In this document: piece after piece, positions 3,980 through 41,866 of the stretch
Numbering within the stretch: the stretch's first letter is position 1
Layout of the letters: each line of letters begins with the position of its first letter
Origin: Chiloscyllium plagiosum
Lineage: Eukaryota
NCBI RefSeq assembly: GCF_004010195.1
Contig: NC_057718.1
Span: 58,607,868 to 58,652,528, forward strand
DNA: 44,661 nucleotides
Direction: 5' to 3'
Translations under genes and position numbers: made by a program
Notes under the pieces: generated by a model
Seen by the model: the letters and a program-made list of their open reading frames with translations, nothing else
Databases searched by the model: none
What the model was told of the DNA's origin: nothing

Positions 3980-4640
3980 CAAGGGATGGTATTGGAAACT
4001 CCCCAATTACCTTTGTTTATGCATTCCATGGGGTCCTTAATCCATGTCTAAAGAAGGTGTCTTGGGCTTTGGCAAATTCACTCTTAGTTGATCACCAAGC
4101 TTGCCTCCCGAAATCGATTGAACTATTCTGATAAATGTTGCAAATGTTCTTTCCATGTATGATTAAAAATCACCAGGTCATCAATGTATACTACCCAATT
4201 GGGTAAACTGGATTTGACCGTATTGGTTAGTCTTTATAATGTGGCTGGCGCATTTTTCATACCAAATGGCATGATTTTAAATTGATACAGTCCATTCGGC
4301 GTTATGAAAGCCAAATTGTCTTCGCTCTTTCGGTCAAAGAGATCTGCCAGTACTCTCTGAGCAAGTCCAACTTAGTTGCCTCTCCCACCTTTTCAACACA
4401 AGTCTTCCAAATGTGGATTTGGATATGCATCAGTCTTGGTAATTGCACTGACTTTGCAATAATCCACACAACTGTTTGGTACCATTTGGTTTTTGCACCA
4501 TTAGATGGGTGAGCTCCCATCACTATAACTCATTTGATTTTGTCATCTTGGAGGATGCGTTCAATCTCCTTTTGAACCTGTGCCAACTTTAGAGGGATTG
4601 TGCCTATAAGGATGTTGCTTAATCAGAACAGCATTTTCTA
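3980..4640 (-). pseudogene. pol: Gmr1 reverse transcriptase remnant
   Basis: IKQHPYR, TKLDLLREYWQISL, MPFGMKNAPATL, YIDD (4177-4188), TKVIGEFPIP. Confidence 0.88.
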
Positions 4641-4879
4641 AATCTACATTATGGATAATTACGTTCGTACTTCCCAGCTTATTTCCACATATCTCCCCAT
4701 GTGATTTCAATAACCCTTTCAGGTCATTTTGATTTTCCTGTGGAAGGTAACTCAATAATTTATCCCAATTTCTGAAAACTTCCTCATTGTTCAATTTAAT
4801 TTGAGGAATGTCCAATTCAGAATCCTCTGAACTTGATCCTTCACTCCTTGTTGTAACTAATAACACATTCTCCTTTTGT

Positions 4880-5900
4880 TTTCCTTCCCTATCAAAATAC
4901 CTTTTGAGCATATTCACATGACACACTCTGTGAGATTTCTTTCTGTCTGAAGTCCTTGTCAAATAGTTCACCTCACTCAATTTCCTTTCGACTTGATAAG
5001 GTCCACTAAACCTTGCTTTTAAAGGTTCACCAATACTGGAAGTAACACTCAATTTAACTCTGATGGCAAAATTGCAAGTTTTTGATTTCTTGTCTGTTTC
5101 CTCTTTCTTTGTATGCTGTGATACTTTTAAACACTACCCAGCCCACTCAATTTAATCATTCCCTAAAATCTGACGCACAGTCCAAATATGTGGTCTTTGA
5201 AATCTGGCTCAACAATTTCTCCTTATTTAGTTTTAATGGTCCTCTCACTTCATGCCCAAAAGCTAATTCAAATGGACTGAATTTGGTTGATTCATTTGGT
5301 TTATCTCTAATGGCAAAAAGTGCAAATGAAATTCCTTTATCCAATTTAATCTGGACTATAAGTCCTCAACATGATCTTTAATGCCTGATGCCACCTTTCT
5401 AGTCCTCCCTTCAATTCTGGATGGTACACAGTAGATTTGAATTGTTTTATTCCTAAACTGTCCATAGCTTTCTTGAATAATTTTGATGTAAAATTTGACC
5501 CTTGATCTCTGTGGGTAATCTGTATCTTGTGAAAAAATTTGAGTAAATCCTCTGCAATCCTTTTAGCTGTGATATTGCTTAATGGAATAGTCTCTGGAAA
5601 TCTCGTGGACATGTCCATTATTGTTAACAAATATTGATTGCCTCTTTTTTGTTTTAGGTAGGAGTCCTACAAAATCAATTAAGGCTCTTATAAAAGGTTC
5701 TTCAAATGCAGGAATAGGGATTAAAAGTGTGGGTTCTATTATTGCCTGTGGTTTTCCAGTTTCCTGAAATGTATGACATGTCTGGCAAAATTCAACTACA
5801 TCCTTGTGCAGTCCAGGCTTGAGTTTGTCTTACCCCTAAATGACTTCCTACTGGGAGTTCATGCACTACTCACAACACCTCCTTTCTATAACCCGCTGGC
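4880..5900 (-). pseudogene. pol: Gmr1 integrase remnant (HHCC, DDE core, GPY/F)
   Basis: HEL..GSHLG...FCQTCHT; LIDFVG; DQGSNFTS; YHPE..GGLERWH; FSPFELAFGHEVRGPL; ARFSGPYQV...HVNMLKRY. Confidence 0.9.
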
Positions 5901-6779: not shown

Positions 6780-8010
6780 TTTTCCTAACCCACCATAACT
6801 ATGATTTCATATTGCTTACTTTATTGCAGTGAAAACATCAGAGCCTTTTAAGTTCTCTTTCCCTTTCAAGGGTTTCCTTTTTACCCTGTGGTAAGTTATC
6901 CTTATGATCTTCACCAAGATCTACTTTTCCCTTACCATGTGAGGATTTCTCTTTTCCCCAATTTTTATCCCTCCCGGATTGAAATTGATGTTGGAAGCCA
7001 AACTTTGATTAATGGACCAAATCATAATCATCAGTCATTTTAGCTGTTATCTTGCTGTTTTAACTCTCTGCTCTTCCACATGGATTCTCACTAGTTCAGG
7101 AAATGAATTAATGAACTCCTCCAAAATAATCGTCTAAGAGCGTCATAGGTTTGCTCTATTTTTAATGCGCTTATCATCCTATCACAATTACTTTGTTTGA
7201 TCCTTTCAAATACAATGTAGATTTGACCAGGATACATGCTTAGATTCTTGAAACGTTGTCTGTTGGCTTCTGGTACAAGCTCATATGCACGTAAAGTGGC
7301 TGTCTTCATCTCCTCATACGCCTCAGATACCTCCTCTGATAGTGATACAAATACCTCACTAGCTCTACCTACAAGTTTGTTTGGATCAACAAAACCCACA
7401 TGTTTCATTTGTTTAGCCACCTTATCAAATGAGATGAAAAAGGCTTCTACATCTTTGTCATCAAATTTCGGCAATGCTTGGATATTTTTAAACAGATCCA
7501 TACCAGGTCTTTGGCTCCAATGGGTTTGCTCATCCTTATGCTCTTCCTTACTCAACTTACCTTCTGCCTTCATCTCCATCCTTTTTCACTGACTTTCCTG
7601 GCTAAGTGCCAATTTATGAAGTTCAAATTCTCTCTTTCTCCCTTTTTTCTTCTCTGTCTTTTTCTCTCCTCTCTCTCTCACTTTCTTCTCTCTCTTTCTT
7701 TCCTTTTGTCTTCCCTCTGCTTTTAATCATCATTTCATTTTCTCTTTCTTTTTCTTTTGCTTCTAACTCAAGCTGCTTCATTTTAAATTGGATTTTAGCC
7801 ATCTCCAAAGATTCTGATGGTCTTTACTGCAAATTCAAATGCTGAACTATTGTTGCAATAACCACATCACTTTTCAGAGACACAGACAATTTCAACTCCA
7901 ATTTGACTGCCAATTCCAGCAGCTTTTCCTTGTTCACCTTTTGTAAAGCCTCCAAATTCACTTCTTCCACCCCCAGAAAACTCTTGGCAACTGAAAGAGT
8001 CATTACTGCA
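6780..8010 (-). pseudogene. gag: Gmr1 gag remnant (coiled coil, capsid-like region, degenerate zinc knuckle)
   Basis: LQKVNKEKLLELAVKLEL; E/K/R-rich coil 7620-7800; PKFDDKDVEAFFISFDKVA...LRAYELVPEANRQRFK; CFHCNK near 6820-6837. Confidence 0.82.
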
Positions 8011-9514: not shown

Positions 9515-9808
9515 GGGGCAGCATAGTTGTTAGCACTGCTGCTTCACAGCACCAGTGTGTCCCAGGTTTGATTCCAGTCTTAGGTGACTATCTGTGTGAA
9601 GTTTGCATGCTCTCCTGTGTCAGTGTGAGTTTCCACTAGGTGCTCCAGTTTCTTTTCGTAATCTAAAGATGTGCAAGTTAGGTTTAGCCATGGTTAAAAA
9701 AATGCTCATTGCAGGGTTCTGGGTCTGGATGGAATGCTGTTTGAAGGGTTGGTGCAGGTTCAATGAGCAAAATTACTTCTTTCTGCACTCTTGAGATACT
9801 ATGATTCT
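9515..9808 (+). mobile_element. Diverged HE1-type V-SINE
   Basis: GGGGCAGCATAGTTGTTAGCACTGCTGC...GGTTTGATTCC...V-domain-like core...ACTATGATTCT tail. Confidence 0.8.
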
Positions 9809-10165: not shown

Positions 10166-10846
10166 TCTTAAGAAATCAAGCGTTGAGTTCTACCCATTTC
10201 TGATGCATAACGCTATTGTCCCTGAGCACAATGCAGCCTGGAAGTATTACATTGAGAAGTATTGGTGAACCCCAAAGTACAGTATTAGATTGGTGAACTG
10301 GATTATTAGCGATTCCGAGATATGCCATGGTGATGGGGTGAGTCTGGTGTGCTTGGTCAATGTCAATCTCTCTGGTTGGAGGATGGGGGTGATCATTGCA
10401 CATGGAATACCCCACATGAAACTGGCCACCATGATGACTCAGAAAGCACATTGGTGAGTGACAGCTACCTGTTGCCAACTATGACTTTCATATTGGAAAT
10501 TGTCACTGTCTACTTTCTTACCACTGCTTGGGAAAATAATAATGCACAGATAAACGAGGCAATATTTGTAATAACAAAATGCTAATGCATGCAAATAGGC
10601 CCCTTGCTATTCACTTGCGCGATTCTCAATTAGAGGTTGAAATATTCTGCGCAAAATCAAACTTTCATTTCTGTATGTAAAGAATCTGATTTCTACATTT
10701 GCACTATATTTTCCCAATTGTTTCATCATTGTCCATGTTGTTCAGGAACTGGGAAAATTCAGCCCAATAATTCAGGACAAAATTAATCATTACTTGGGCA
10801 AATGTGGGTCTTTTAAGAAAAACCAGAATGGATTTGTTATCATTGA

Positions 10847-11027
10847 GGAGAAAGTGAGGTCTGCAGATGCTGGAGATCAGAGCTGGAAATGTGTTGCTGG
10901 AAAAGCGCAGCAGGTCAGGCAGCATCCAGGGAACAGGAGAAGGGCTTATGCCCGAAACGTCGATTCTCCTATTCCCTGGATGCTGCCTGACCTGCTGCGC
11001 TTTTCCAGCAACACATTTCCAGCTCTG
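10847..11027. mobile_element. Palindromic Penelope-derived mini-element (family A pLTR ends, inverted)
   Basis: 64-nt arms 10878-10941 and 10964-11027 with 1 mismatch; loop GGGCTTATGCCCGAAACGTCGA. Confidence 0.85.
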
Positions 11028-11369
11028 GATTTGTTATCAGTCAATTGTGTTTAACTAAGTTGCTTGCATTTATAGATGGAGTGACAGTGAATAAAATGAG
11101 GGTCATGATTATATGGTGTGTTATCGTATTTTTACTCGACCTGTATAGACATATTATGGCATACTTCTGGAGCAGGTGGGACTTGAATCCGGACATCAGG
11201 ATACAAGATGTGATCTGTGACATTTGAACTGCTGCAACAGCACACTCATAATTAATGAACAATGTCGTACAGGATTTATCAATGACAAACAAAATTTACA
11301 AACTAATCTCTCTGTATTCAGTTGGGTCCTTACTTTATAAATATCTCAAAGAGCATGATTCAATTTTAT

Positions 11370-15100: not shown

Positions 15101-15605
15101 ATAACCTTCTGCATCTGTTTGGTTGAAAATTGTTCTTTTGGGCATGTAGTGCTGTTTCTCTATCCTGAAATATAGTTCTGGCTGCACTAATATGCATGTG
15201 AAAACATTCAGAATTGGCCAAATCAACACAATGAGAGTTGTAACAAGACTATGGCTTTAAGAGGTATGTTTTGTCTTGGTTTTACTTAATGAAGAAGTGT
15301 GAGTGGTACCGAGCAACCTACTTAGAGCTATTAGAGTAAACAGTTTATTAGGTCTTGGATTTTTTTTAAAGTAAGAACAATAGAAGCAGCCTGAATGTAT
15401 GGGGCAAGTTCCCATGGAATCAGGATTTTTAGTTTTCAGTTTTCGACAGTTGTTGCTAGGTTCTTGAAGCTGGGTTTGGAAGCGGCAGTACCTCTCTCCT
15501 TGCTATTCTTCCGGTCAACGTTTTCTCTTGACGCTTTATTTGTTTATGCTAGAATTGCATGTGAGACAATCTGTTGAACTAAATTTGTCTTTTGCCAAGG
15601 GTGTA

Positions 15606-16407
15606 CATAGAACACAGAACAGTACAGCACAGAACAGGCCCTTCAGCCCACGATGTTGTGCTGACCATTGATCCTCATGTGAGGTAAACCTAATGTACAA
15701 ACCCTCAAATTTCTGTGACCATATGCATGTCCAGCAGTCTCTTATTATATCCCCAATGACCCCGCTTCCACAACTGCTGCTGGCAATGCATTCCATGCTC
15801 TCACAACTCTCTGTGTAAAGATCCAATGAAAGAAGTCCGAGCTTAGTCAACCTCTCTTCGTAAGATAAGCCCTCCATTCCAGGCAGCATCCTGGTAAACC
15901 TCCTCTGAACCCTCTCCAAAGCATCCACATCTTTCCTATAATAGGGCGACCAGAACTGGACACAGTATTCCAAGTGCGGTCTAACCAAAGTTATATAGAG
16001 CTGCAACAAGATCTCACTGCTTTTAAACTCAATCCCCCTGTTAATGAAAGCCATAGCACCATATGCTTTCTTAACAACCCTGTCCACTTGGGTGGCAATT
16101 TTAAGGGATCTATGTACCTGCACACCAAGATCCCGCTGTTCCTCCACACTGCCAAGAATCCTGTCTTTAATCCTGTACTCAACTTTCAAGTTCGACCTTC
16201 CAAAATGCATCACTTCGCATTTATTCTGGTTGAACTCCATCTGCCACCTCTCAGCCCATCTCTGCATTCTGTCATTGTCACGCTGCAACCTACAACAGTC
16301 CTCTATACTGTCAACAGCACCTGCAACCTTTGTGTCGTATGCAAACTTGCTAACCCATCCTTCAATCTCCTCATCCAAGTCATTAATAAAAATTACAAAG
16401 AGTAGAG
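15606..16407 (-). mobile_element. CR1/HER1 LINE, 5'-truncated with an internal deletion near 15820
   Basis: ORF 15536-16378(-) SKFAYDTK...LQRD...WQMEFN...LVRPHLEYCVQFWSPY...RRFTRMLPG; TTCTATG-like tail. Confidence 0.92.
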
Positions 16408-16529
16408 GCTTTATTTGCTGATGCTAGAATTGTGGGATGTTACCATATTAGAACAGTTAGTGTTTAGTAGTAAATTAATCTATTATTCTGTTAAGTTTTC
16501 CAGTACAGTTATCCAATCCCTTCTTCCTC

Positions 16530-17255: not shown

Positions 17256-17339
17256 CTCAGCCTTTGTCTTATTTTGTGCTGCTAATTAATAGGAAATGGA
17301 ATAATCAGTAAAATCTGGATGCCTGATTATTCCAGCCCT

Positions 17340-17467
17340 CCTGAAGAAGGGCTTATGCATGAAACGTCGATTCTCCTGCTCTTCGGATGCTGCCTGGCCT
17401 ACTGTGTTTTTCCAGCACCACATTTTTAAACTCTGGTCTCCAGCATCTGCAATCCTCACTTACTCCT
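17340..17467 (+). mobile_element. Penelope family A pLTR 3' end starting at the hammerhead core
   Basis: CTGAAGAAGGGCTTATGCATGAAACGTCGATTCTCCTG...CTCCAGCATCTGCAATCCTCAC. Confidence 0.8.
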
Positions 17468-17495: not shown

Positions 17496-19990
17496 GATTT
17501 GATTTGATTTGATTTATTATTGTCAAGTGCATCATATCATAACATACAAAGACACAAAGATCATAGGGTGATTGGACAGAGCCTAGGATACAAAGTTATG
17601 GCTGCAAAGAAGGTGCACAAAAAAAAAGATCAACATTAGATTTGAAATTTGAGAGGTCCATTCAGAAGTCTATTAACAATGGGGAAGAAGCTGCTCTTGA
17701 ACCCGTTAGTGTGTATGTTTAAGCTTTTGTATCTTCTATCTGAGAGAAGAGGTGGGAAGAGATAATGACCAGAGTGGGAGGGGTCTTTGATGATGGCTGC
17801 GTTTCTGTGGCAGCGAGAAGTGTAGATGGAGTCAATGGATGGAAGGTTGGCTTGCGTGATGGTCTGGGCTGTGATCACAACATTCTGTAGTTTCTTACAG
17901 TCCTGGGCAGAGCAGTTGCTGATAGAATGCTTTCTCTGGTGCATGTGTAAAATTTTGGTGAGGGTCCTTCTGGACATGTTGACATTCCTTACATTCTCGA
18001 GGGAGAAGAGGTGTTGTTTTGCCGTCTTGAGCATTGCATCAATACGGGTGGTCCAGGATAGATTGTTTGTGATCTCACTCCTAGGAACTTGACTGTCTCA
18101 ACCATCTCCACCTCAGCTCCATTGATGTAGGTAGGGGCGTGTCCTCCTACTTCCTGAAGTTGATGATCAGCTCTTTAGTTTTGCTGACATTGAAGGAGAG
18201 ATTGTTATTTTTGCATCACGTCACCAAGCATTCTATCTCCTTCCTGTATTCTGTCTCATCATTGTTTGATATCCAGCCTACAACAGTAGCGCAGTTGGAG
18301 TTTGGACGAAATTTGGCCAGAAGGTCATGAGTCTATAAGGAGCTGGGGTGCTGAGTACGCTGCCTTGCAGGGCACCGGTGTTGATTGCCGTGGAGGAGAT
18401 GCTATTTCCTATCCTCACTTACAGTTGCGGTCTGTGTGTCAGGCAGTCAAGGATCCAGTTGCAAAGGTTGGAGCAAAGGATTTAGGTCTGAGTTTGGAGA
18501 TTAGTTTGGTTGGGATTATCGTGTTGAAGGAGTTATGGTCAATGAGTAGAAGTCTGATGTAGGTATCCTTATTAACCAGTTGAGTGTAGGGCTAGGGAGT
18601 TGATGTCTGCCATGGACCTGTTGCACTAGTAGGCAAATTGCAAGAGACCAAGGCTGACTGGGAGGCTAGAGTTGACATGAGCTATGGCTGTCAAGAATGT
18701 GTGCTGGAAAAGCACAAATGGTCAGGCAGCATCCAAGGAGCAGGAAAATCAACATTTCGGGCACAAGCCCTTCTTCAGGAATAAAGCTGGGAGCCTTGGG
18801 GGTGGAGAGATAAATGGGAGGGAGTGGGGTTGAGGAGAAGGCAGCAGAGAGTACAATAGGTGGTTGGAGGTTGGGGTAAAGGTGATAGGTCAGAGGGGAG
18901 GGTGGTGCAGATAGGTGGGAAGGAAGATGGGCAGATGAGACAGGTCATGAGCTTGAAGATTGGAACTGGGGTAAGATGGGGCGGTGGGAAAATAAGGAAA
19001 CTGATGAAATGCACATTGATGCCATAGGGTTGGAGGATCCCAAGGCAGAAGATGAGGCGTTCTTCCTCCAGGCATTGGAGGGGTAAGGGAGTGGCGGTGG
19101 AGGAGGCCCAGGACCTGAATGTCCTTGGCAAAGTGGAAGGGGGAGTTGAAGTGTTCGGCCACGGGAAGTGGGGTTGAAGCGCTCTGTGAGTAGGCAGCCT
19201 GTCTCCCTAATGTAGAGGAGACCGCATTGCGAGCAAAGGATACAATAAATGATATGTGTGGAAATGCAGGTGAAACTTTGATTGAAGTGGAAGGTTCCTT
19301 TGGGGCCTTGGCTGGAGGTGAGGGGGGAGGTGTGGGTATAGGTTTTACAATTCTTGCTGTAGCAAGGAAGGTGACAGAAGGTGAGGGTGGGTTGTTCAAG
19401 GGGCATGGACCTGACGAGGTATTCACGGAGGGAACGGTGAAAACTGGATAGGGGTGGGGAGGGAAATATTATCTCTAGTGGTGGGGTCTGTTTGTAGGTG
19501 GCAGAAATGGCAGAGGATGATGCGATATTGGTGGGATGAAAGGTGAGGACCAGAGGAGTTTTGTCCTCGTTGCAGTTGGAGGGATAGGGTTCAAGGGCGG
19601 AGGTGCGGGATCTCAAGGCACTTCATAATTATGGAAGTCAGAGCCACTGCATGGTAGTCATTGAAGCACAATGCATGTGTTTTCTTTGGTACTAGGATGA
19701 TGATGGTTGTATTGAAACAGATGGGAGTTCAGATTGTAGCAAACACAGGTTAAAGATGTCCGAGAATACTCCTGCCAACTGGCCCGCACAGAATCTGAGT
19801 GCACAGCTAGGGACTCCATCTGGGTCAGTTGCTTTCTATGGGTTCACTCTCAAGAAAGCCGATCTGACATTTGCAGCAGTGACTGAGGGAACAAATGCAT
19901 CTGGAGCTAAAAGGTGACACCATTTCACTGATCTTCTGCTCAAACTGAACATAAAAAAAATTGAGCGCATCAGGGAAGGATGTAATTTGT
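17496..19990 (-). mobile_element. Rex1/Babar-clade LINE (decayed), split by a Penelope insertion
   Basis: PDALNFFYVQFE, AGILSDIFNL, NDYHAVALTSIIMKCL, CKKLQNVVITAQTIT...IIKDPSHSGHYLF..LLSDRRYKS...FKSSFFP; (AAATC)n tail at 17496-17515. Confidence 0.82.
18696..19612 (-). mobile_element. Penelope-like element family A, 5'-truncated: GIY-YIG C-terminus plus pLTR
   Basis: FTCISTHIIYCILCSQCGLLYIRETG; LEEERLIFCLGILQPYGIN; pLTR with CTGAAGAAGGGCTTGTGCCCGAAATGTT; possible TSD TCAAG (18691-18695 and 19613-19617). Confidence 0.88.
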
Positions 19991-21301: not shown

Positions 21302-21627
21302 GATTAGATTAGATTAGATTAGATTAGATTACAGTGTGGAAACAGGCCCTTCGGCCCAACAAGTCCACACCGACCCGCCGAAGCGAAACCCACCCATACC
21401 CCTACATTTACCCCTTACCTAACACTACGGACAATTTAGCATGGCCAATTCACCTGACCCTGCACATCTTTGGACTGTGGGAGGAAACCGGAGCACCTGG
21501 AGGGTGCCCACGCAGACACGGGGAGAATGTGCAAACTCCACACAGTCAGTCGACTGAGGCGGGAATTGAACCCGTGTCTCTGGCGCTGTGAGGCAGCAGT
21601 GCTAACCACTGTGCCACCGTGCCGCCC
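21302..21627 (-). mobile_element. HE1 V-SINE with (AATCT)n tail
   Basis: tRNA-derived head at 21627, V-domain core, HER1-like 3' end GGGCCGAAGGGCCTGTTTCC, (AGATT)n at 21301-21330, TSD GTTAA (21297-21301 and 21628-21632). Confidence 0.93.
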
Positions 21628-22099: not shown

Positions 22100-23316
22100 T
22101 CACCGCAAGGCTCAGTGTTGGGATCACAACTTTTCACTTTATACATTAACGATCTAGATGAAGGAACTGAGAGGATTCTGGCAAAGTTTGGAGATGATAC
22201 AACGATAGAGAGACAGGTAGTACTGAGGAGATGGGGAGGCTGCAGAAGGATTTGGGCAGGTTAGGAGAGTGGGCAAAGAAGTGGCAGATGGTGAACAATG
22301 TGAGAAAGTTTGAGGTCATGCATTTTGTAGGAAGAGGTATGAACTGTTTTCTAAATGTGGAGAAAGTTCAGAAGTCTGAAGTGCAAAGAAACTTGACAGT
22401 TCTAGTCCAGGGCTGAAAATGTGTTGCTAGAAAAGCGCAGCAGGTCAGGCAGCATTCAAGGAACAGGAGAATCGACATTTCAGGCATAAGCCCTTCTTCA
22501 GGAAGAAGGGCTTATGCCCGAAACGGCGATTCTCTTGTTTCTTGGATGCTGCCTGACCTGCTTCGCTTTTCCAGCAACACATTTTCAGCTCTGATCTCCA
22601 GCATCTGCAGCCCTCACTTTCTCTCAAAAAGTTCTAGTCCAGGATTCTCTTAAGATAAACTTGAGTCAGTAGTTAGGAAGACAAATGCAATGGTGACATT
22701 TACGTTGAGAGGACTTCAATATAAAAGTAGGGATATACTTCTGAGGCTCTATAAGGCTCTATTCAGACCACATTTGGAGTATTGAATGCAGTTTTGGGCC
22801 CCATATCTCAGCAAGGATGTACTGGCCCTGGAGCATGTTCAGGGAGGTTCACGAGAATGTTTCTAGGAATGAAAAGCTTAACTTATGAGGAACGTTTGAG
22901 GACTCTGGATCTATGCTGAATGGAGTTTTGAAGCTTAGAAGGATGAGGGGGATTTAATTGAAACTTACACAACACTGAATGGCCTGGACATAATGGATGT
23001 TGGGAAGATGTTTCCATTAGTAGGAGAGACTGGGACTCAAGGGCACAGCCTTGGAATAAAGGGAAGACTTTTTAGAACTTCTTTAGCTAGAGAGTGGTGA
23101 ATCTATGCTATTCGCTGCCACAGAAGGCTTTGGAGGCCAGATCATTGAGTGTATTTAAGACTAAGATAGGTTCTTGATTGTCAAGGGGATCAAGGGATAC
23201 AGGGAAAAAGCGGGAGAATAGGGTTAAGAAACTTATCAGTCATGATTGAATGGCAGAGCAGACTTGATGGGCTGAATGGACTACTTTCTGCTCCTATCTC
23301 CTATGGTCTTATGGTT
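22100..23316 (+). mobile_element. CR1 LINE, 5'-truncated RT plus 3' UTR
   Basis: PQGSVLGSQLFTLYINDLDE, KFGDDT, LQKDLGRLGEWAKKWQM, RPHLEY; tail CTATGGTCTTATGGT. Confidence 0.9.
22412..22629. mobile_element. TSD-flanked palindromic Penelope-derived mini-element with back-to-back hammerhead cores
   Basis: Arms of about 87 nt spanning 22412-22589, centred on CCCTTCTTCAGG|AAGAAGGG; 14-bp TSD AGTTCTAGTCCAGG (22398-22411 and 22630-22643). Confidence 0.92.
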
Positions 23317-25030: not shown

Positions 25031-25202
25031 AATTCCGAAATAGCCTCTTTCAATTATCAATTAAGCTGTGAGTTTAGAACTGCTGAGCTAATTATGGTTT
25101 TGGAAATTCAGGCAAGCATTCATAATGACATAATATTAACTTTTGGGAATCAGACAACAAATTATTCTATTTCAACTGTACTAACAGACTGTATTTTTCT
25201 TC

Positions 25203-25750
25203 AAAGTTTGGGAGAAGATTTGTAGCTCGGGTGCTCGCTGTTGTGGTTCTGTTTGCCGAGCTCCCAGATGTGTTGCAGACGTTTTGTCCCCTGTCTAGGT
25301 GACATCCTCAGAGCTTGGGAGCTTCCTATGAAGCGCTTCTGTGATGTTTTCTCCGGCATTTATAGTGATTTGTACCTGCCGCTTCCGGTTGTCAGTTCCA
25401 GCTGTCCGCTGCAGTGGCCGGTATATTGGGTCCAGGTCGATGTGCTTATTGATTGAATCTGTGGATGTGTGCCATGCCTGTAGGAATTCCCTGGCTGTTC
25501 TCTGTTTGGCTTGTCCTATAATAGTAGTGTTGTCCCAGTCGAACTCATGTTGCTTGTCATCTGAGTGTGTGGCTACTAAGAATAGCTGGTCATGTCGTTT
25601 CGTGGCTAGTTGGAGTTCATGGATGCGGATCGTTAGCTGTCTTCCTGTTTGTCCTATGTAGTGTTTTGTGCAGTCCTTGCATGGGATTTTGTACACTACA
25701 TTGGTTTTGTTCATGCTGGGTATGGGGTCCTTCATCCTGGTGAGTTGTTG
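25203..25750 (-). mobile_element. Penelope-like element family B: GIY-YIG C-terminus plus pLTR
   Basis: ORF 25295-25735(-) NVVYKIPCKDCTKHYIGQTGRQLTIRIHE...FDWDNTTIIG...REFLQAW; degenerate hammerhead at 25278-25311. Confidence 0.92.
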
Positions 25751-27220
25751 TATTTTTCTTCCCTAATCCCCAACAATAATTTGAACAGTCAAAGCAGTCT
25801 AGCAGTCTGGTTTTTCTGTAAATTTGTCTTGGTAACTTAAGCCTTTTATTTCACTTTTAGATCAAAGAACAGGCGATTTAAAGAACTTCAGATCATGACA
25901 TTTACCGACCTTACATACGCTTCAAGAGCATTTGTGTCTCATTCATCAATTATGATGCCCATTTTGCAGATTAAGGTCCCTGTAACAGTCAAAATCTGGT
26001 GTATTTGAACCTGCACTAATTTTGAATGTCCCTGCTGAGTTTTATTTTCCTGCCTGCATGAATCATGGCCTGTCCCCTTCTCTCTTCTGACTAAATTTGT
26101 TTTGTTAAAAGGTGGACTGGGTCCTGAAACATGTAGTTTCTGATTTTTGAGTGGTTCAAATCACTCCCGGATCCCTGGTTCTGGACACTGGACTTCTTTA
26201 TGGAATGCGAAATGAAGTGGCAGTTGACATGTTTCAGGGCAAAAGAATCTCTGTGTTTATTTAAAATACTAAAGGTAATTTTAATATAAGAAAATAGTTA
26301 ATGCAATTAAACAGGAAATTGCCGCAATTGCAGAACAGTGGTACTTAAAATACACAAGTAACTATATGACTATTATGAGAATACTATCCTATAAGTATAC
26401 TACACACAGGAAACAACAGTGTTTAATTTCAGACACTTTAATTAGAATTCCTACCCTTGGGGTCCCAATGCACTATCACCATCCACCTTCCCCCTCCTTG
26501 CTAGATGAGTCAGAACTTTGGGGTCTCGGGAGCTTATGCTCACCACTCAAAACATGGTTTTGAAGTGCACCCAGTTGTTGAGGTCATTGCCATCGGTTCT
26601 CTTGATTCAGAACAGGCCCGTGTCTGGAAGCTCTTGTTCAGATGGTGCTTAGTTGGCTTCCCCCCCTCTCAGATGTCCTTTGTTCCATGAATGCTCTTGG
26701 TTTGGCTTCCTGATTCAGCTTCTCTGTTCAGTCTCTTGATTCAGCCTCTGTGATTCTTGGTTCTTGGTTGGGAGTGGAAGCCTGTGAGGAAGCTGTTCGT
26801 GCAGAAGCTTATTGTTGAGAAAAGCCGCACCCCTCTGGTGAGATCAGGGCTGGCAGTTATACTGACTGTGCCTCATTATCTCCCCTCAAATCTGTAGTTT
26901 TCTTCAAGGTCTTTATGTTCTCTTCTGAAGTTATTTGGCTATTTAGATGATTAGAGTTTGTGTGAATGGGTTTTGATCGGGGTAGAATGTCCAGTATCTC
27001 TGTAGGCCCCATACCATCTGCACTTTACAGCCCAAGGTATAAAACCTGTCTCTGGCTAGGGCCTGTTAATTTTGGTCGATTGTTCTTTGAGAGGGGTGGT
27101 GAAAATTGGAATTCCAGGCTGAACAATAATCCCAGAACAGCAGTCTCTATTCCCAGGCCTTGCTAGTTGTGTATTTCCTGCAGACTCATTTCAACTTTCA
27201 TTTATCCTTTAAAAATTATG

Positions 27221-27899: not shown

Positions 27900-28320
27900 C
27901 CTCTATGACATGTCAATCATTGGTTTCCTCCATTGCCACAGTGAATCAGACTGCAAATTGGAGGAACTTCATCTTCTGCCTGGGCAGCCTACAGCCTGGA
28001 GGACTCAACATTGAGTTCTCCAATTTCAGATAACCTTCCCACCTCACCCTAACTTCCTTTTCAGCCCTGACTTCTCCCTTCCATCTCTCCAGCTGACCCC
28101 TCCTTCCAGCTATCAACCGGATTTGTTCCTCCTATCAACCTACCAGGTATTCACCTGTCACCATCTCTCTACTCTGCCCCTTACCCACCTATAACCCTTC
28201 CCCTTTATCTGCAACTCCCCCTACCCCCACCTCCATTCCTGAAGAAGGGTTATACCTGAAATCTTGAACTTCTGATGCTGTCTGTCTTACTGTGCTCTTC
28301 CAGCCTCCTGCTTGCCTGCT
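27900..28320 (+). mobile_element. Penelope family A-related 3' fragment
   Basis: IFCLGSLQPGGLNIEFSNF, then a C-rich pLTR and CTGAAGAAGGGTTATACCTGAAA. Confidence 0.8.
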
Positions 28321-28342: not shown

Positions 28343-28469
28343 TTGGTGCTGTAAGTGGACAATGAAGAAGGTTATCTAAGATTACAAAGAGATCTTAGTC
28401 AATTTGGTGCTGTAAGTGGACAATGAAGAAGGTTATCTAAGATTACAAAGAGATCTTAGTCAATTTGGT
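28343..28469. repeat. Perfect 61-bp tandem duplication at the LINE 5' end
   Basis: 28343-28403 is identical to 28404-28464, with TTGGT microhomology. Confidence 0.95.
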
Positions 28470-32728: not shown

Positions 32729-33669
32729 TAGCGAGTTTTGAGAAGATTTGTAGCTCAGGTGGAGGTTCTGCATGTAGGTTTGCTCGCTGAGCTGGAAGGT
32801 TCATTTCCCGACGTTTCGTCACCCTACTAGGTAACATCTTCAGTGGGCTTCCGGGCGAAGCAATCATCCTAACATCCACAAAAGAAGCTGCATCAGAATA
32901 TTATTTCAATGAGCCACCTCACATTGCAGCACAGAGGAACTAGGCAGAGCAGAGGAAAATTACCTATACCGAGTATTCAAAAAGAATGGGTACCCAATGA
33001 ACACAGTCCACCACTTTCTCAGCAACAAACCCAAGCAAGCAGACAAAACATGTCCAGAAACCTTAGCCACTCTCCCCTACATCAAAGACATCTTGGAAAT
33101 GACTGTCAGACTACTCAGACCCTTTGGCACCATGGTAGCACACAAACCCACCAACACACTGAAACAGTAGCTAATGAACTTGAAAGACCATATACAGACA
33201 ACAAGCAAAGCTAATATCTTTTACACAATACCGTGCAAGAACTATAACAAACACTACATTGGACAAACAAGCAGAAAACCAGCCACCAGTATACATGAAC
33301 ATCAACTAGCCACAAAATGACATGACCCTCTCCCACTAGTATTTTTATACACAGATGAAGAAGGACACCACTTCAACTAGGACAACACATCTATCCTAGG
33401 ACAAGCCAAACAGAAACACGCACGAGAATTCCTCGAAGCAAGGCATTCCAACCGGAACTCTATCAATAAACAAATTGAGTTAGATCCCATCTACCACCCC
33501 TGAGAAAAAGAACAGGAAATGACAGCACCACAGGAAATTGCATCACCATCAGAAATGACAAAGAAACCCAAACATATAAATAGAAAGCAGGAATCATCAG
33601 CAGTGCTTCGCCCGGAGGCCCACAACATCTGAAAATGAACCTTCCTGGTCAGCGAGCAAACCTACATGC
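32729..33669 (+). mobile_element. Penelope-like element family B with an inverted 5' pLTR
   Basis: 12-bp TSD AGTTATTTAACT (32717-32728 and 33670-33681); IFYTIPCKNYNKHYIGQTSRK GIY-YIG; 32770-32862 is an inverted copy of 33600-33669. Confidence 0.92.
32810..32843 (-). ncRNA. Minimal hammerhead ribozyme core (PLE family B)
   Basis: CUGAAGA-U-GUUACC(UAGUAG)GGUGAC-GAAAC-GUC. Confidence 0.75.
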
Positions 33670-35536: not shown

Positions 35537-35776
35537 TGAACAGCATGCCATTCCTGATGATGCAATTGAAAAGTCATCAGCTTCCGTTCTTTTTGTCTTG
35601 TTGCCCATAAGATTGCAACCATAGTTTGAAATGCTGGGAGGCGTGCATGCAAACAACATACAACTTATAGCCTGGAGAAGCTTTTCATTTGAGAAACCTG
35701 CTGTCAGTTGATAATGTTGCACCTATAGGTCAGCTACCAACTCATGTGCTGGTCAAACAGTAAAATCTGCATCACA

Positions 35777-36276
35777 NNNNNNNNNNNNNNNNNNNNNNNN
35801 NNNNNNNNNNNNNNNNNNNNNNNNNNNNNNNNNNNNNNNNNNNNNNNNNNNNNNNNNNNNNNNNNNNNNNNNNNNNNNNNNNNNNNNNNNNNNNNNNNNN
35901 NNNNNNNNNNNNNNNNNNNNNNNNNNNNNNNNNNNNNNNNNNNNNNNNNNNNNNNNNNNNNNNNNNNNNNNNNNNNNNNNNNNNNNNNNNNNNNNNNNNN
36001 NNNNNNNNNNNNNNNNNNNNNNNNNNNNNNNNNNNNNNNNNNNNNNNNNNNNNNNNNNNNNNNNNNNNNNNNNNNNNNNNNNNNNNNNNNNNNNNNNNNN
36101 NNNNNNNNNNNNNNNNNNNNNNNNNNNNNNNNNNNNNNNNNNNNNNNNNNNNNNNNNNNNNNNNNNNNNNNNNNNNNNNNNNNNNNNNNNNNNNNNNNNN
36201 NNNNNNNNNNNNNNNNNNNNNNNNNNNNNNNNNNNNNNNNNNNNNNNNNNNNNNNNNNNNNNNNNNNNNNNNNNNN
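35777..36276. other. Assembly gap (500 N, probably a scaffold join of arbitrary size)
   Basis: Run of N. Confidence 1.
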
Positions 36277-36374
36277 TCTCCATGGAAGAGGCAAATCCCT
36301 TGCCTTGTGCCATAGAGTTAAACAAGGAAAAGCACTGACCTCAGATAAAACTGCAAAATGTGACAGATGCATGT

Positions 36375-38445
36375 TACTTTCAACCCTGGCTCAGTAAAGA
36401 GTGCAGGAGGGTGACTTAAGTGCAGTACCCAGCATAATAAAACATGAGGTGTCAACCTGAAGCTACAGCATAGGACTACTTCTGTGCAAAACAGCATAAG
36501 CATCAAGTGATAGACAGAATGAAGTGATTTCACAACCAATGGATCAGACCCAAGCTGTGCAATCCTGCTTCATCCAGTGGCAATTGGTGGTAGAAATTTA
36601 AAAACTCACTTGAAGAGGGGCTCCACAATTACTCATCCACAGTAATGAGAGAGTCCAGCAGATTAGTACAAAAGATCAGATGGATATGTTTGCAATTCTG
36701 CCAAAGTGTCGAGTCTACAATCCACCTTGGCCTTCTTAGATACGCCAGGCTTCAGTCAATACAATTTTCTCCATGTGATATCAAGGAAGGACTGAAGGCT
36801 TAGGATGCCACAAAAGCTATTGGCTCTGACAACATCCTGGCTAGAGTACTGAAGACTTTTGATCTCGAACTTGCTGCTCCCTATTTAAGCTGTTATTATC
36901 AACGATGATGTCAAGCAGCACGTGCTTAGCAACAACTTGCTCACTGACACTCTGTTCTGTTTCCACTAAGTCCACTCAGCTCCTGACTTCATTACAGCCT
37001 TGCTTCAAACATGGACAAAGAGGTTGAGGCGAGAGTGATTGACCTTGACCTTGACATTACATTTGACAGAATCCTGGGAAATAAAATAGAGTCTGGGAAT
37101 CAAGGGAAAAAAAGTACTTGGTTTGAGTCATACCTAGCACATAGCAAGTTGATTGTGGTTATTGGAAGTCTGTTATCTCAGCTGTAGAACATCGCTGCAG
37201 GAATTCTTCAAGGTTGTGTGCTAGACCTAACCATCTTCAAAAGTTTCATCAATGACCACCCTTTATTGTGAAGCCAGAAGTGGAGAGTTTCACTGATTGC
37301 ACAATGTTCAGCACCATTCGTGACTCCTCAGATACTGAAGCAGTTCATGTCAAAATGCAGCAAGACCTGGACAACATCCAGGTTTGGACAGATAAGCAGC
37401 AATAGCATTTGTGCCACACAGCGCGATGCAATTATTATCTGTAGCAAGAGAGAACCTAACTGTCATTCTCTGGAATTCAACAGCACTACCATCACTAAAT
37501 CCTCCATTATCAAAACATTAACAACATTCTGGGAGTAAACATTGACTAGAAACTGAACTGACCTAACCATATAAGTACTGTGGCTACAAGAGCAGATCAG
37601 CAGTCATAAATTGGGCAGTGGCTCAACTCCTGACTCTCCAAATCCTGTCCACTATTGATAAGTAACAAATCAGGAGTGTAATGGAATACTACCCACTTAC
37701 CTGAATGAGTGCAGTTCCAACAACATTCAAAAGGTTAGACACCATCCAGGACAAAACAGCCTGCTTCATTGTCATCCACAAAGGTTCATTCCTTCCACCA
37801 CTGATGCTCAGTGGTAGTAATGTATACCATCTACAAGATGTAGAATTCACCAACGCATTCTGGATAGAACCTTCCAAACCTATGGCCATGACCTTCTAGA
37901 AGTGCAAGAGCAGCAAAATAAGTGGGAACACCACCATTTGTAAGTTGGTCTCCAAGCCACATAGCATCCTGACTTGGGGGTATATCATTATTCTTTCACT
38001 AGTACTGGGTCAAAATCATTGAACATGCTCTTAAGCTCATTGTCATCCACAAAGGTTCATTCCTTCCACCACTGATGCTCAGTGGTAGTAATGTATACCA
38101 TTTACAAGATGTAGAATTCACCAGCGCATTCTGGATAGAACCTTCCAAACCTATGGCCATGACCTTCTAGAAGTGCAAGAGCAGCAGAATAAGTGGGAAC
38201 ACCACCATTTGTAAGTTGGTCTCCAAGCCACACAGCATCCTGACTTGGGGGTATATCATTATTCTTTCACTAGTACTGGGTCAAAATCATTGAACATGCT
38301 CTTAAGCATCATTATGAACTACCAACAGTAGATAAACTGCAATGCTTCAATCAGGCAGTTGACTACCATCTTCTCAAGGACAATTAGTGATGACCAATAA
38401 TTGCTGGCCCATCCAACAAAGCCCAAATCCCCTCAATGAATTAGA
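36375..38445 (+). mobile_element. LINE family 2, second copy (RT half, decayed)
   Basis: QPWLSKECRR, DNILARVLKT, HSAPDFITAL, AGILQGCVL, MQQDLDNIQVW, RLDTIQDKTACFI; 3' tail CTCAAGGACAATTAG...AATAATTGCTGGCC. Confidence 0.85.
37766..38307. repeat. 271-bp tandem duplication
   Basis: 37766-38036 vs 38037-38307; four substitutions found by eye. Confidence 0.95.
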
Positions 38446-38661: not shown

Positions 38662-38922
38662 TATTTAGTTCTGAATTCCCGCTTATGCATTCTAATTGTG
38701 TGCTTTTTTAAACTCTCCTAATTTGTTTTAGTGCTCTCCTTGGGATTCGTGTACTCGTTGTTTATCTTTATCTTTTCTGCATTTTTTCCCATATTTAGTT
38801 CTGAATTCCCGCTTATGCATTCTAATTGTGTGCTTTTTTTAAACTCTCCTAATTTGTTTTAGTGCTCTCCTTGGGATTCGTGTACTCGTTGTTTATTTTT
38901 ATCTTTTCTGCATTTTTTCCCA
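38662..38922. repeat. 130-bp tandem duplication
   Basis: 38662-38791 vs 38792-38922; one extra T and one substitution. Confidence 0.95.
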
Positions 38923-40559: not shown

Positions 40560-40892
40560 TTGAGTATTGCTGAAAAAGGTTGCTAATTTGTTGAAGCTTG
40601 TCATCTTGCATTCATCAGGACAATTCATAAGAATACCAATTCAAAAGAAAAAAAAAATCACACTTATGAGGTGACAGGGCTGATTGATTGGCAAGGTGCA
40701 CTCTGATTGGAAAATACATTGCCATGAAGAATGTGTTCATTAATGGGTGCTTACTACATGGGTGCTAACTGACATCATTACTTTTTTTCTCATGTAGCAC
40801 AAATATTGGTATTTCTTGTAAATTGTCCTGATGAGTACAAGGCAAAAAGAAAAACCCTTTGACAACATGTGTCCTTTTTTTCAGCAATAACC
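40560..40892. mobile_element. Inverted pair of hammerhead-like pLTR ends (putative PLE family D)
   Basis: Minus ATTGGTATTCTTATGAATTGTCCTGATGAATGCAAGATGACAAGCTT...TTTTTCAGCAATA vs plus ATTGGTATTTCTTGTAAATTGTCCTGATGAGTACAAGG...TTTTTCAGCAATA. Confidence 0.65.
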
Positions 40893-41349: not shown

Positions 41350-41570
41350 GTGAAAACAAAAGCCTATTTCATACTCCCTAGGTCCCAGGAACTAGCATTT
41401 CATTATTTGAACAAATAACATCTCCTCTTAGGTACAGAAAAGTTGGACAAACAATGTTACCTCTTCTTATCAAGCTATCAACTAAGGTGTAACTATTCAC
41501 TTAACAATCCGAGAAATGCAACGCAATTAAGAACAAATGTTTCTTTCAGAGGTAAAATGAACAACTTCAC

Positions 41571-41866
41571 CGCCTTCCTAACCTGCAATCATCTTCCTGA
41601 CCTCTCCGCCCCCACCCCACTCCGGCCTATCACCCTCATCTTGACCTCCCTCCACCTATCGCATTTCCAAAGCCCCTCCCCCAAGTCCCTCCTCCCTTCC
41701 CTTTATCTTAGCCTGCTGGACACAGTTTCCTCATTCCTGAAGAAGGGCTTATGCCCGAAACGTCGATTCTCCTGTTCCTTGGATGCTGCCTGACCTGCTG
41801 CGCATTTCCAGCAACACATTTTCAGCTCTGATCTCCAGCATCTGCAGCCCTCACTTTCTCTCAAAG
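41571..41866 (+). mobile_element. Non-coding Penelope family A pLTR insertion
   Basis: 8-bp TSD AACTTCAC (41563-41570 and 41867-41874); C-rich body, hammerhead core and the shared 3' end. Confidence 0.9.
41737..41764 (+). ncRNA. Minimal hammerhead ribozyme core (PLE family A), intact consensus
   Basis: CUGAAGA-A-GGGC(UUAU)GCCC-GAAAC-GUC; palindromic ACGU stem III; stem I weak. Confidence 0.75.

Follow-up and report, generated by a model that had tools for sequence, protein, structure and literature searches.

Insertions of Penelope-like elements (PLEs) are described, in the accessible portion of Arkhipova et al. 2013 (PMC3846280), as having head-to-head inverted pLTRs, palindromes at the junctions, a 31-bp tail on one of the pLTRs and TSDs of 8-10 bp, and the available parts of Craig et al. 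2021 (PMC8557442) and of PMC8969392 likewise treat inverted pLTRs and tails as known features of the group. In PLEs of the Neptune clade a CX2-5CxxC linker precedes the GIY-YIG domain, according to the same portion of PMC8557442. With a purified PLE protein, both strands of the target are cut and extended from two start points within the RNA that delimit the tail, and in vitro this does not depend on hammerhead cleavage (PMC11167929); the origin of the inverted pLTRs and tails is called unresolved both in that paper and in the accessible text of PMC8557442. The hammerheads of metazoan PLEs occur mostly as single truncated copies, with dual motifs in Schistosoma that lie on opposite strands 100-700 bp apart (PMC4209133, available sections), while animal non-LTR retrozymes are built of direct tandem repeats, with a hammerhead per unit on one strand, and form circular RNA (PMC7229834; bioRxiv 10.64898/2026.07.22.740005; both as partially accessible). 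The one Penelope promoter that has been mapped, in Drosophila, is internal and TATA-less (PMC2377424).

The insertion considered here lies at 22412-22629 of a 44,661-nucleotide stretch of Chiloscyllium plagiosum DNA (the window). We read it, with a probability of about 0.6, as a head-to-head pair of 5'-truncated copies, both from the end of a high-copy Penelope-like retroelement that bears the hammerhead, placed there in one event in which both target nicks served as primers. That it is a by-product of PLE activity by one of three routes, namely two-nick priming, fold-back or later central deletion, we regard as very probable indeed. Its parts, and the principal related features of the window, are collected in the table.

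Structure of the insertion and its hammerhead cores

The hairpin reported in a preliminary description of this DNA, with arms of about 87 nt, proves somewhat longer: arms at 22408-22499 and 22502-22593 comprise 92 nt and are 90% complementary, and the RNA fold predicted for the insert (-144.9 kcal/mol, z = -17.1) was matched in stability by none of 200 shuffled sequences. The perfect 14-bp TSD reported there also stands. When the insert and one 14-bp repeat are deleted, the interrupted reverse transcriptase (RT) frame becomes continuous across the site (tblastn against the other RT remnant of the window, E 1e-31), and this continuity at the reconstructed empty site marks 22412-22629 as a true insertion with a TSD, located, as had been stated, within a CR1-like RT. 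The CR1 label is presumptive; the RT remnant used for comparison, at 15539-16423, matches Pfam RVT_1 at E 8.8e-05, which falls below the curated cut-off. An ORF had been said to be absent, in agreement with stops in five of the six frames and with a sixth, stop-free over 72 codons, that is without coding signs. The two arms differ at 8 of 88 positions, with four private changes in each and no compensatory changes, and the insert is likely a dead end after neutral decay.

An earlier likening to a MITE fails at the termini, which are not mutual inverted repeats (3-9 of 20 letters agree at seven offsets, 0-6). The asymmetric 3' extension ending in AAAA is, as described, one-sided, over 36 nt, but the identical CTCTCAAA closes the solo copy at 41570-41866, so that the terminal AAAA probably comes from the template; a poly(A) tail was considered and rejected on this recurrence.

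The centre had been interpreted as two back-to-back ribozyme cores sharing an overlapping CUGAAGA box. Cores on opposite strands do abut there, but both are damaged, and a whole box exists on the minus strand alone. On the plus strand the sequence is CAGGAAGA, in which C3-U4 are missing, and the cut site is GGC instead of GUC; the minus-strand core carries two CpG-type changes, one leaving a G-U pair in helix II and the other converting C15.2 to U. These assignments follow the minimal descriptor of PMC4209133, no Rfam hammerhead model having matched. By that descriptor the hammerhead of the solo copy (41737-41765) is intact, and in the subfamily represented at 28239 helix II is altered by matched changes. 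Rfam returned no match across the whole window at gathering scores, hammerhead included, and the 13 and 5 sub-threshold matches obtained at E up to 10, mostly generic hairpins with no hammerhead among them, were rejected as chance.

In silico, helix II of either strand has a pairing probability of 0.0 when the hairpin is folded in full, as against 0.83-0.92 in the solo copy, and the two cores, being on opposite strands, never occur within one RNA; ribozyme action in the insert is on both counts predicted to be unlikely. Hammerhead cleavage was also weighed as the origin of the insert's centre and rejected, both arms extending some 26-31 nt beyond the cut site. In the second palindrome of the family (copy 2) the tailed arm stops 2 nt from that site, so cleavage may be relevant in some insertion events. 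Elsewhere in the window, at 40828-40852, a hammerhead-like match, CTGATGAG...GAAA, with no evident helix II or repeat context, is probably due to chance.

Table. Coordinates of the insertion, its parts and related features (window positions)
Feature	Position	Strand	Remarks
Left TSD, 14 bp	22398..22411	+	repeated exactly at 22630-22643
Inverted tail-less pLTR arm, 93 nt	22412..22504	-	corresponds to solo-copy 41734-41826; 4 private substitutions, two at CpG
Minimal hammerhead core	22474..22501	-	whole CUGAAGA box (22501..22495), helix II, GAAA, GUC; descriptor from the accessible part of PMC4209133
Centre junction	22502..22504	.	3-nt overlap (GAA) common to both arms
Direct pLTR arm	22502..22593	+	5'-truncated inside the box; no C3-U4; GUC to GGC at 22526; 4 private substitutions
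One-sided PLE tail, 36 nt	22594..22629	+	no partner arm; 3' loose ends at 41860 in public contigs
Right TSD, 14 bp	22630..22643	+	exact direct repeat of 22398-22411
Decayed CR1-like LINE RT remnant (label assumed), host of the insertion	22130..22913	+	tblastn against RT remnant 15539-16423, E 1e-31
Second same-family palindrome (copy 2), 183 bp	10843..11025	-	14-bp TSD 10829-10842 / 11026-11039; sister subfamily
Related PLE 3' end	18696..19604	-	endonuclease ORF remnant, then pLTR 81-86% like the insert's arms; ends without tail
Head-to-head insertion, unrelated PLE-like family	32729..33669	.	TSD of 12 bp; hammerhead motif in the short, tailed arm; ORF remnant in the tail-less arm of ~800 bp; arms overlap by 4 nt
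Solo 5'-truncated pLTR of the insert's subfamily	41570..41866	+	intact minimal hammerhead, tail, 8-bp TSD; reference for contig alignment

Relatives in the window and in public contigs

Sequence matching the insert's arms occurs at six further sites in the window, namely copy 2 and five solo ends at 17337, 18696, 28236, 41232 and 41570. Palindromes accordingly make up two of the seven window insertions of this pLTR group, and TSDs flank four of the seven (14, 14, 9 and 8 bp), with none of at least 7 bp at the other three. The derivation from PLE pLTR ends put forward in the preliminary description is borne out by the 81-86% identity of the arms to the pLTR at 18696-18784. Because this pLTR adjoins a PLE ORF remnant, and because the motif of the solo copy fits the minimal PLE hammerhead, we infer that the insert sequence is the pLTR end of a Penelope-like element; the link to an endonuclease ORF is by way of a sister subfamily, the window holding no ORF of the insert's own subfamily. 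The remnant beside the 18696 end is 49% identical to bamboo-shark protein P0001 (E 9.7e-28, the one match among 138 candidates). P0001 in turn matches Pfam GIY-YIG at E 0.0046, below the cut-off, and has a CxxC preceding the endonuclease; the window remnant keeps two of the three cysteines. Pfam gave no match, at E up to 0.1, for the PLE-like ORF remnants of the window themselves. The related pLTR ends at 17337-17466 and 18696-19604 face each other about 1.2 kb apart, and are probably separate insertions, since the first has its own TSD.

The longer head-to-head insertion at 32729-33669 belongs to an unrelated family. Its ORF remnant, at 32859-33500, we take to be PLE-like from a YTIP-HYIGQT motif, and the hammerhead and tail layout also underlies this call. 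An ORF remnant with a pLTR related to the same family is found at ~25200-25760.

Among other contents of the window are near-perfect adjacent direct duplications at 37766-38313 (277 bp, 98%), 38662-38922 (131 bp, 98%) and 28343-28469 (66 bp, 100%), which are either tandem duplications or assembly artefacts, and a run of N at ~35770-36315. A SINE-like repeat recurs at 1-151, 9521-9692 and 21440-21627, with 93% identity between two of the copies, and minus-strand ORF remnants at 4561-5133 and 7091-7585 resemble parts of a decayed LTR retroelement, from its integrase end and from a gag-like region.

Positions of the form 417xx-418xx are given below in the numbering of the solo copy, 41570-41866. 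In the insert, the tail-less arm covers 41734-41826 and the tailed arm runs from 41739, with an overlap of 3 nt; in copy 2 the corresponding arms run from 41741 and from 41767, with an overlap of 4 nt and no whole box, so that the two centres differ. The two palindromes have outer ends that differ in position by 2 nt, and each shows pairing of the final 2-4 TSD letters with family sequence, in one and the same CUG register; target pairing of 2-4 nt is found at all three tail-less ends in the window. Both arms of copy 2, and neither arm of the insert, have 41779C and 41822C, the former contributing 23% of depth in one related organism (A) and ~1% in two others (B and C). Since centres and subfamily markers both differ, the sequences suggest that the two palindromes are likely separate events from different subfamilies. 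The centre of copy 2 is also that of the insert minus 36 nt between two TTCT repeats, and could have been produced by a later deletion between those repeats. Each of the three head-to-head insertions in the window combines a tailed arm with a tail-less one, between TSDs of 14, 14 and 12 bp and with an overlap of 3-4 nt; the 5' extent is always greater in the tail-less arm, by 5 nt, 26 nt and ~700 nt (n = 3).

The abundance and boundaries of the family were viewed in contigs from three public DNA runs of the three organisms, aligned to the solo copy and not to the insert's locus (102,034, 71,159 and 110,372 contigs). The listing on which the figures below are based comprises 15 of the 112 joints and 18 of the 1096 rows of loose ends, with counting incomplete in two of the runs and joint geometry absent from the table. 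The top listed 3' loose end is that of the tail, at 41860 (1087, 1150 and 1389 contigs), and tail-less 3' ends are listed at 41818-41822 (342; 294+254; 335+281), so that the family has two fixed 3' ends with a spacing of about 30-40 nt. The top listed 5' loose end with mixed, low-agreement flanks lies directly before the box, at 41733-41734 (348+246; 344; 373). Summed depth is ~7-16x higher downstream of 41735, a ratio that is not copy number and is inflated by subfamilies with other upstream sequence. Contigs meeting at 41826 (370, 410 and 449) have the tail but other upstream sequence, with an agreement of ~0.5, and probably represent an additional subfamily that carries this tail.

None of the 15 listed joints (of 112) stands out as a dominant centre junction; each of them occurs in at most 8 contigs and at a depth of at most 215, and the insert's own junction type is absent from the same 15; short-word assemblies handle hairpin centres badly, and a common junction could be hidden outside the listed joints or lost at such centres. 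Counting copies with one shared centre had been proposed earlier as a check on whether palindromes propagate; to the extent that the count, which is incomplete, goes, the two window palindromes differ and no listed joint dominates, which tends to speak against propagation. In seven of the listed opposite-strand joints one site lies at 41732-41742 and the other varies, and these joints, if read as head-to-head, overlap by only 0-2 nt; some opposite-strand joints recur in two to three organisms. The tailed end is joined to the opposite-strand tail-less end at 41822/41860 in 7, 6 and 8 contigs and at 41828/41860 in 7, 5 and 2, and direct tandems of a 127-nt unit occur in 2, 2 and 4. In all three organisms, 41764-41768, near the cut site, is also joined to 41733-41734 at the start of the box, which would be either an inverted or a tandem duplication of the core. 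Pattern scans beyond the window returned no match in viral contigs, none and then six in metagenomes, and one in prokaryote genomes; these seven metagenome and prokaryote matches, considered as further copies, were rejected as chance, only 21-26 letters around the pattern matching.

Routes to a two-arm insertion

In priming from both nicks, the reading that we prefer, the PLE endonuclease would cut the two target strands 14 nt apart. One nick would prime reverse transcription at the end of the tail, and the other, by pairing over 2-4 nt with the RNA, at an inner start. The tail-less cDNA would extend to or near the 5' end of the RNA, placed at an initiator-like TCATTCC that immediately precedes the box; the tailed cDNA would stop earlier, possibly in the course of displacing the first cDNA from the same RNA; the 3' ends of the two cDNAs would then anneal on their short overlap (3-4 nt) and be filled in. 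The subfamily markers common to the arms suggest either that a single RNA served as template, with strand displacement, or that one locus supplied two RNAs. The hammerhead would thus be central in the insert because it stands first in the template RNA, and not through cleavage; the stop at 41733 lies 31 nt upstream of the site at which the ribozyme would cut, and is thus distinct from it.

The boundary at 41733 invites comparison with a promoter. TTTATCT is found 31-32 nt upstream of ATTCC in all three subfamilies that extend that far (41702-41737, 18778-18815 and 28204-28240), the sequence between the two motifs differing among these pLTR subfamilies, and the arrangement is a possible core promoter. 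The TCATTCC at 41733 resembles the initiator consensus, and a transcription start near that position, judged from copy ends and this motif, is plausible; ATTC may, on the other hand, be conserved for helix I rather than as an initiator. The broader proposition, that the family RNA starts just before the hammerhead, that both nicks prime on it, and that the stubs constitute an extensive natural archive of the formation of inverted structures by PLEs, we advance tentatively, at something short of even odds.

The layout published in the accessible portions of PMC3846280 and PMC8557442 supports one of two readings offered in the preliminary description, that of a minimal product of the PLE inverted-pLTR mechanism. 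Self-priming is proposed and preferred for PLE junction palindromes in that part of PMC3846280, and the available text of PMC8557442 ascribes the tail to endonuclease resolution; applied here, a single cDNA or antisense template would fold back on a short complementarity and copy itself, the endonuclease trimming the returning arm at the tail boundary. Subfamily markers common to both arms, and the short overlaps at the centre, agree with such a fold-back. The returning arm of a tailed cDNA, however, could hold nothing 5' of the point at which the tailed arm stops, yet the tail-less arm extends further 5' in all three insertions; its outer end pairs over 2-4 nt with the target end, in the manner of a primer, and tail-less ends also occur solo (18696). 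Self-priming on an antisense template is compatible with the arm data, and we judge fold-back as a whole to be unlikely.

A still smaller likelihood attaches to the view that a longer head-to-head PLE insertion was present at first and that its centre, being unstable, was subsequently lost by deletion between short repeats, so that a stub remained. An insertion of the longer kind does exist at 32729-33669, its long arm having lost the hammerhead by a 33-nt deletion, and the 36 nt by which copy 2 falls short of the insert, set between TTCT repeats, would be in keeping with a deletion of this sort. Against this, copies that are solo and free of any hairpin also start at or near the box (17337 and 41232), and 41733-41734 is the top 5' loose end in three organisms among the rows listed; because solo copies and top 5' ends start there, a stop at the box needs no later deletion.

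Least credible, and in our estimation quite improbable, is the other earlier reading, an independently propagating fold-back family, in which the palindrome itself is transcribed and re-inserted by PLE proteins as a hammerhead-centred, retrozyme-like, non-autonomous unit with tandem forms. It could draw on the two palindromes among seven window insertions, with nearly the same outer end; on the tailed-to-inverted tail-less joints and 127-nt tandems present at low counts in all three organisms, with the recurring opposite-strand joints as possible traces; and on the vertebrate PLE-derived retrozymes reported in the accessible part of bioRxiv 10.64898/2026.07.22.740005; but it is left unsupported by the different centres and subfamily markers of the insert and copy 2, by the ceiling of 8 contigs for any listed joint (15 of 112) against more than 1000 for tail ends, by the insert not being a direct tandem, its cores lying on opposite strands with one truncated and both buried (helix II 0.0), by the lack of compensatory changes between the arms, and by the occurrence of the same layout in an unrelated PLE family (32729-33669).

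As an element, the insert matters little, being one decayed copy among very many. Two-arm stubs with clean TSDs, on the other hand, record both priming sites, both stops and the joint within ~200 bases, and cataloguing them genome-wide could show whether two-nick priming or fold-back self-priming is at work. If palindromes were in fact to propagate as units, they would represent an inverted-repeat kind of retrozyme, which was not found in the literature searched.

Comparison with described systems

MITEs are small, non-coding, hairpin-forming and TSD-flanked, with terminal inverted repeats and with short TSDs whose fixed length matches a DNA transposase. The insert is likewise small, non-coding, hairpin-forming and flanked by a TSD, but its termini are not mutual inverted repeats, the length of the TSD varies among family copies, and the sequence is that of a retroelement end. 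Twin priming of LINE-1, in which both nicks act as primers, yields an inverted 5' part, a TSD and a short junction overlap. The cDNAs of L1 cover different parts of the RNA, whereas those of the insert cover the same 90 nt, and strand displacement or two RNAs would therefore be needed.

Animal non-LTR retrozymes, as portrayed in the accessible parts of PMC7229834 and bioRxiv 10.64898/2026.07.22.740005, share with the insert a short, non-coding sequence, a type I hammerhead, a relation to pLTRs, a long TSD and a GC content below 50%; in place of their tandem repeats, the insert has a single inverted pair set in LINE flanks. The hammerheads that Cervera and De la Pena 2014 (PMC4209133, available sections) describe as minimal in metazoan PLEs have in common with those described here the CUGANGA box, an extra base, a helix II starting with G-C, GAAA, a palindromic ACGU and no helix III loop. 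The dual motifs of that paper stand apart, whereas the two motifs of the insert abut and overlap, and both are damaged. The literature search, which covered freely readable papers, yielded no description of the insert's family or of self-propagating palindromic PLE stubs, and the family may well be catalogued already.

The closest correspondence is with the insertion units of EN+ PLEs, all five features of which are found here: the pLTR of an element with RT and GIY-YIG, an inverted truncated copy, a one-sided tail of 30-40 bp, a TSD and a minimal pLTR hammerhead. As set out in the accessible portions of PMC3846280 and PMC8557442, these units have the same head-to-head copy, one-ended tail, TSD, short junction overlap or palindrome, and pLTR hammerhead. 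The arms of the insert are only ~90 nt long, with no ORF left, and its TSD is 14 bp, as compared with 8-10 bp in the rotifer examples; an ORF-less two-arm stub is not described as a common class in those portions of the two papers. The insertion pattern of PLEs is, on the same sources, already in print, and the proposal that this locus might represent an undescribed system is accordingly not sustained.

For the Poseidon element PAc from Anolis, Frangieh et al. 2024 (PMC11167929) offer no derivation of the inverted structure, and its priming sites are not homologous to the cut DNA, as against the 2-4 nt of pairing at all three tail-less ends seen here. The two RT starts of PAc fit the two 3' ends of the present family, and the dispensability of cleavage in that system fits arms that read through the hammerhead cut site.
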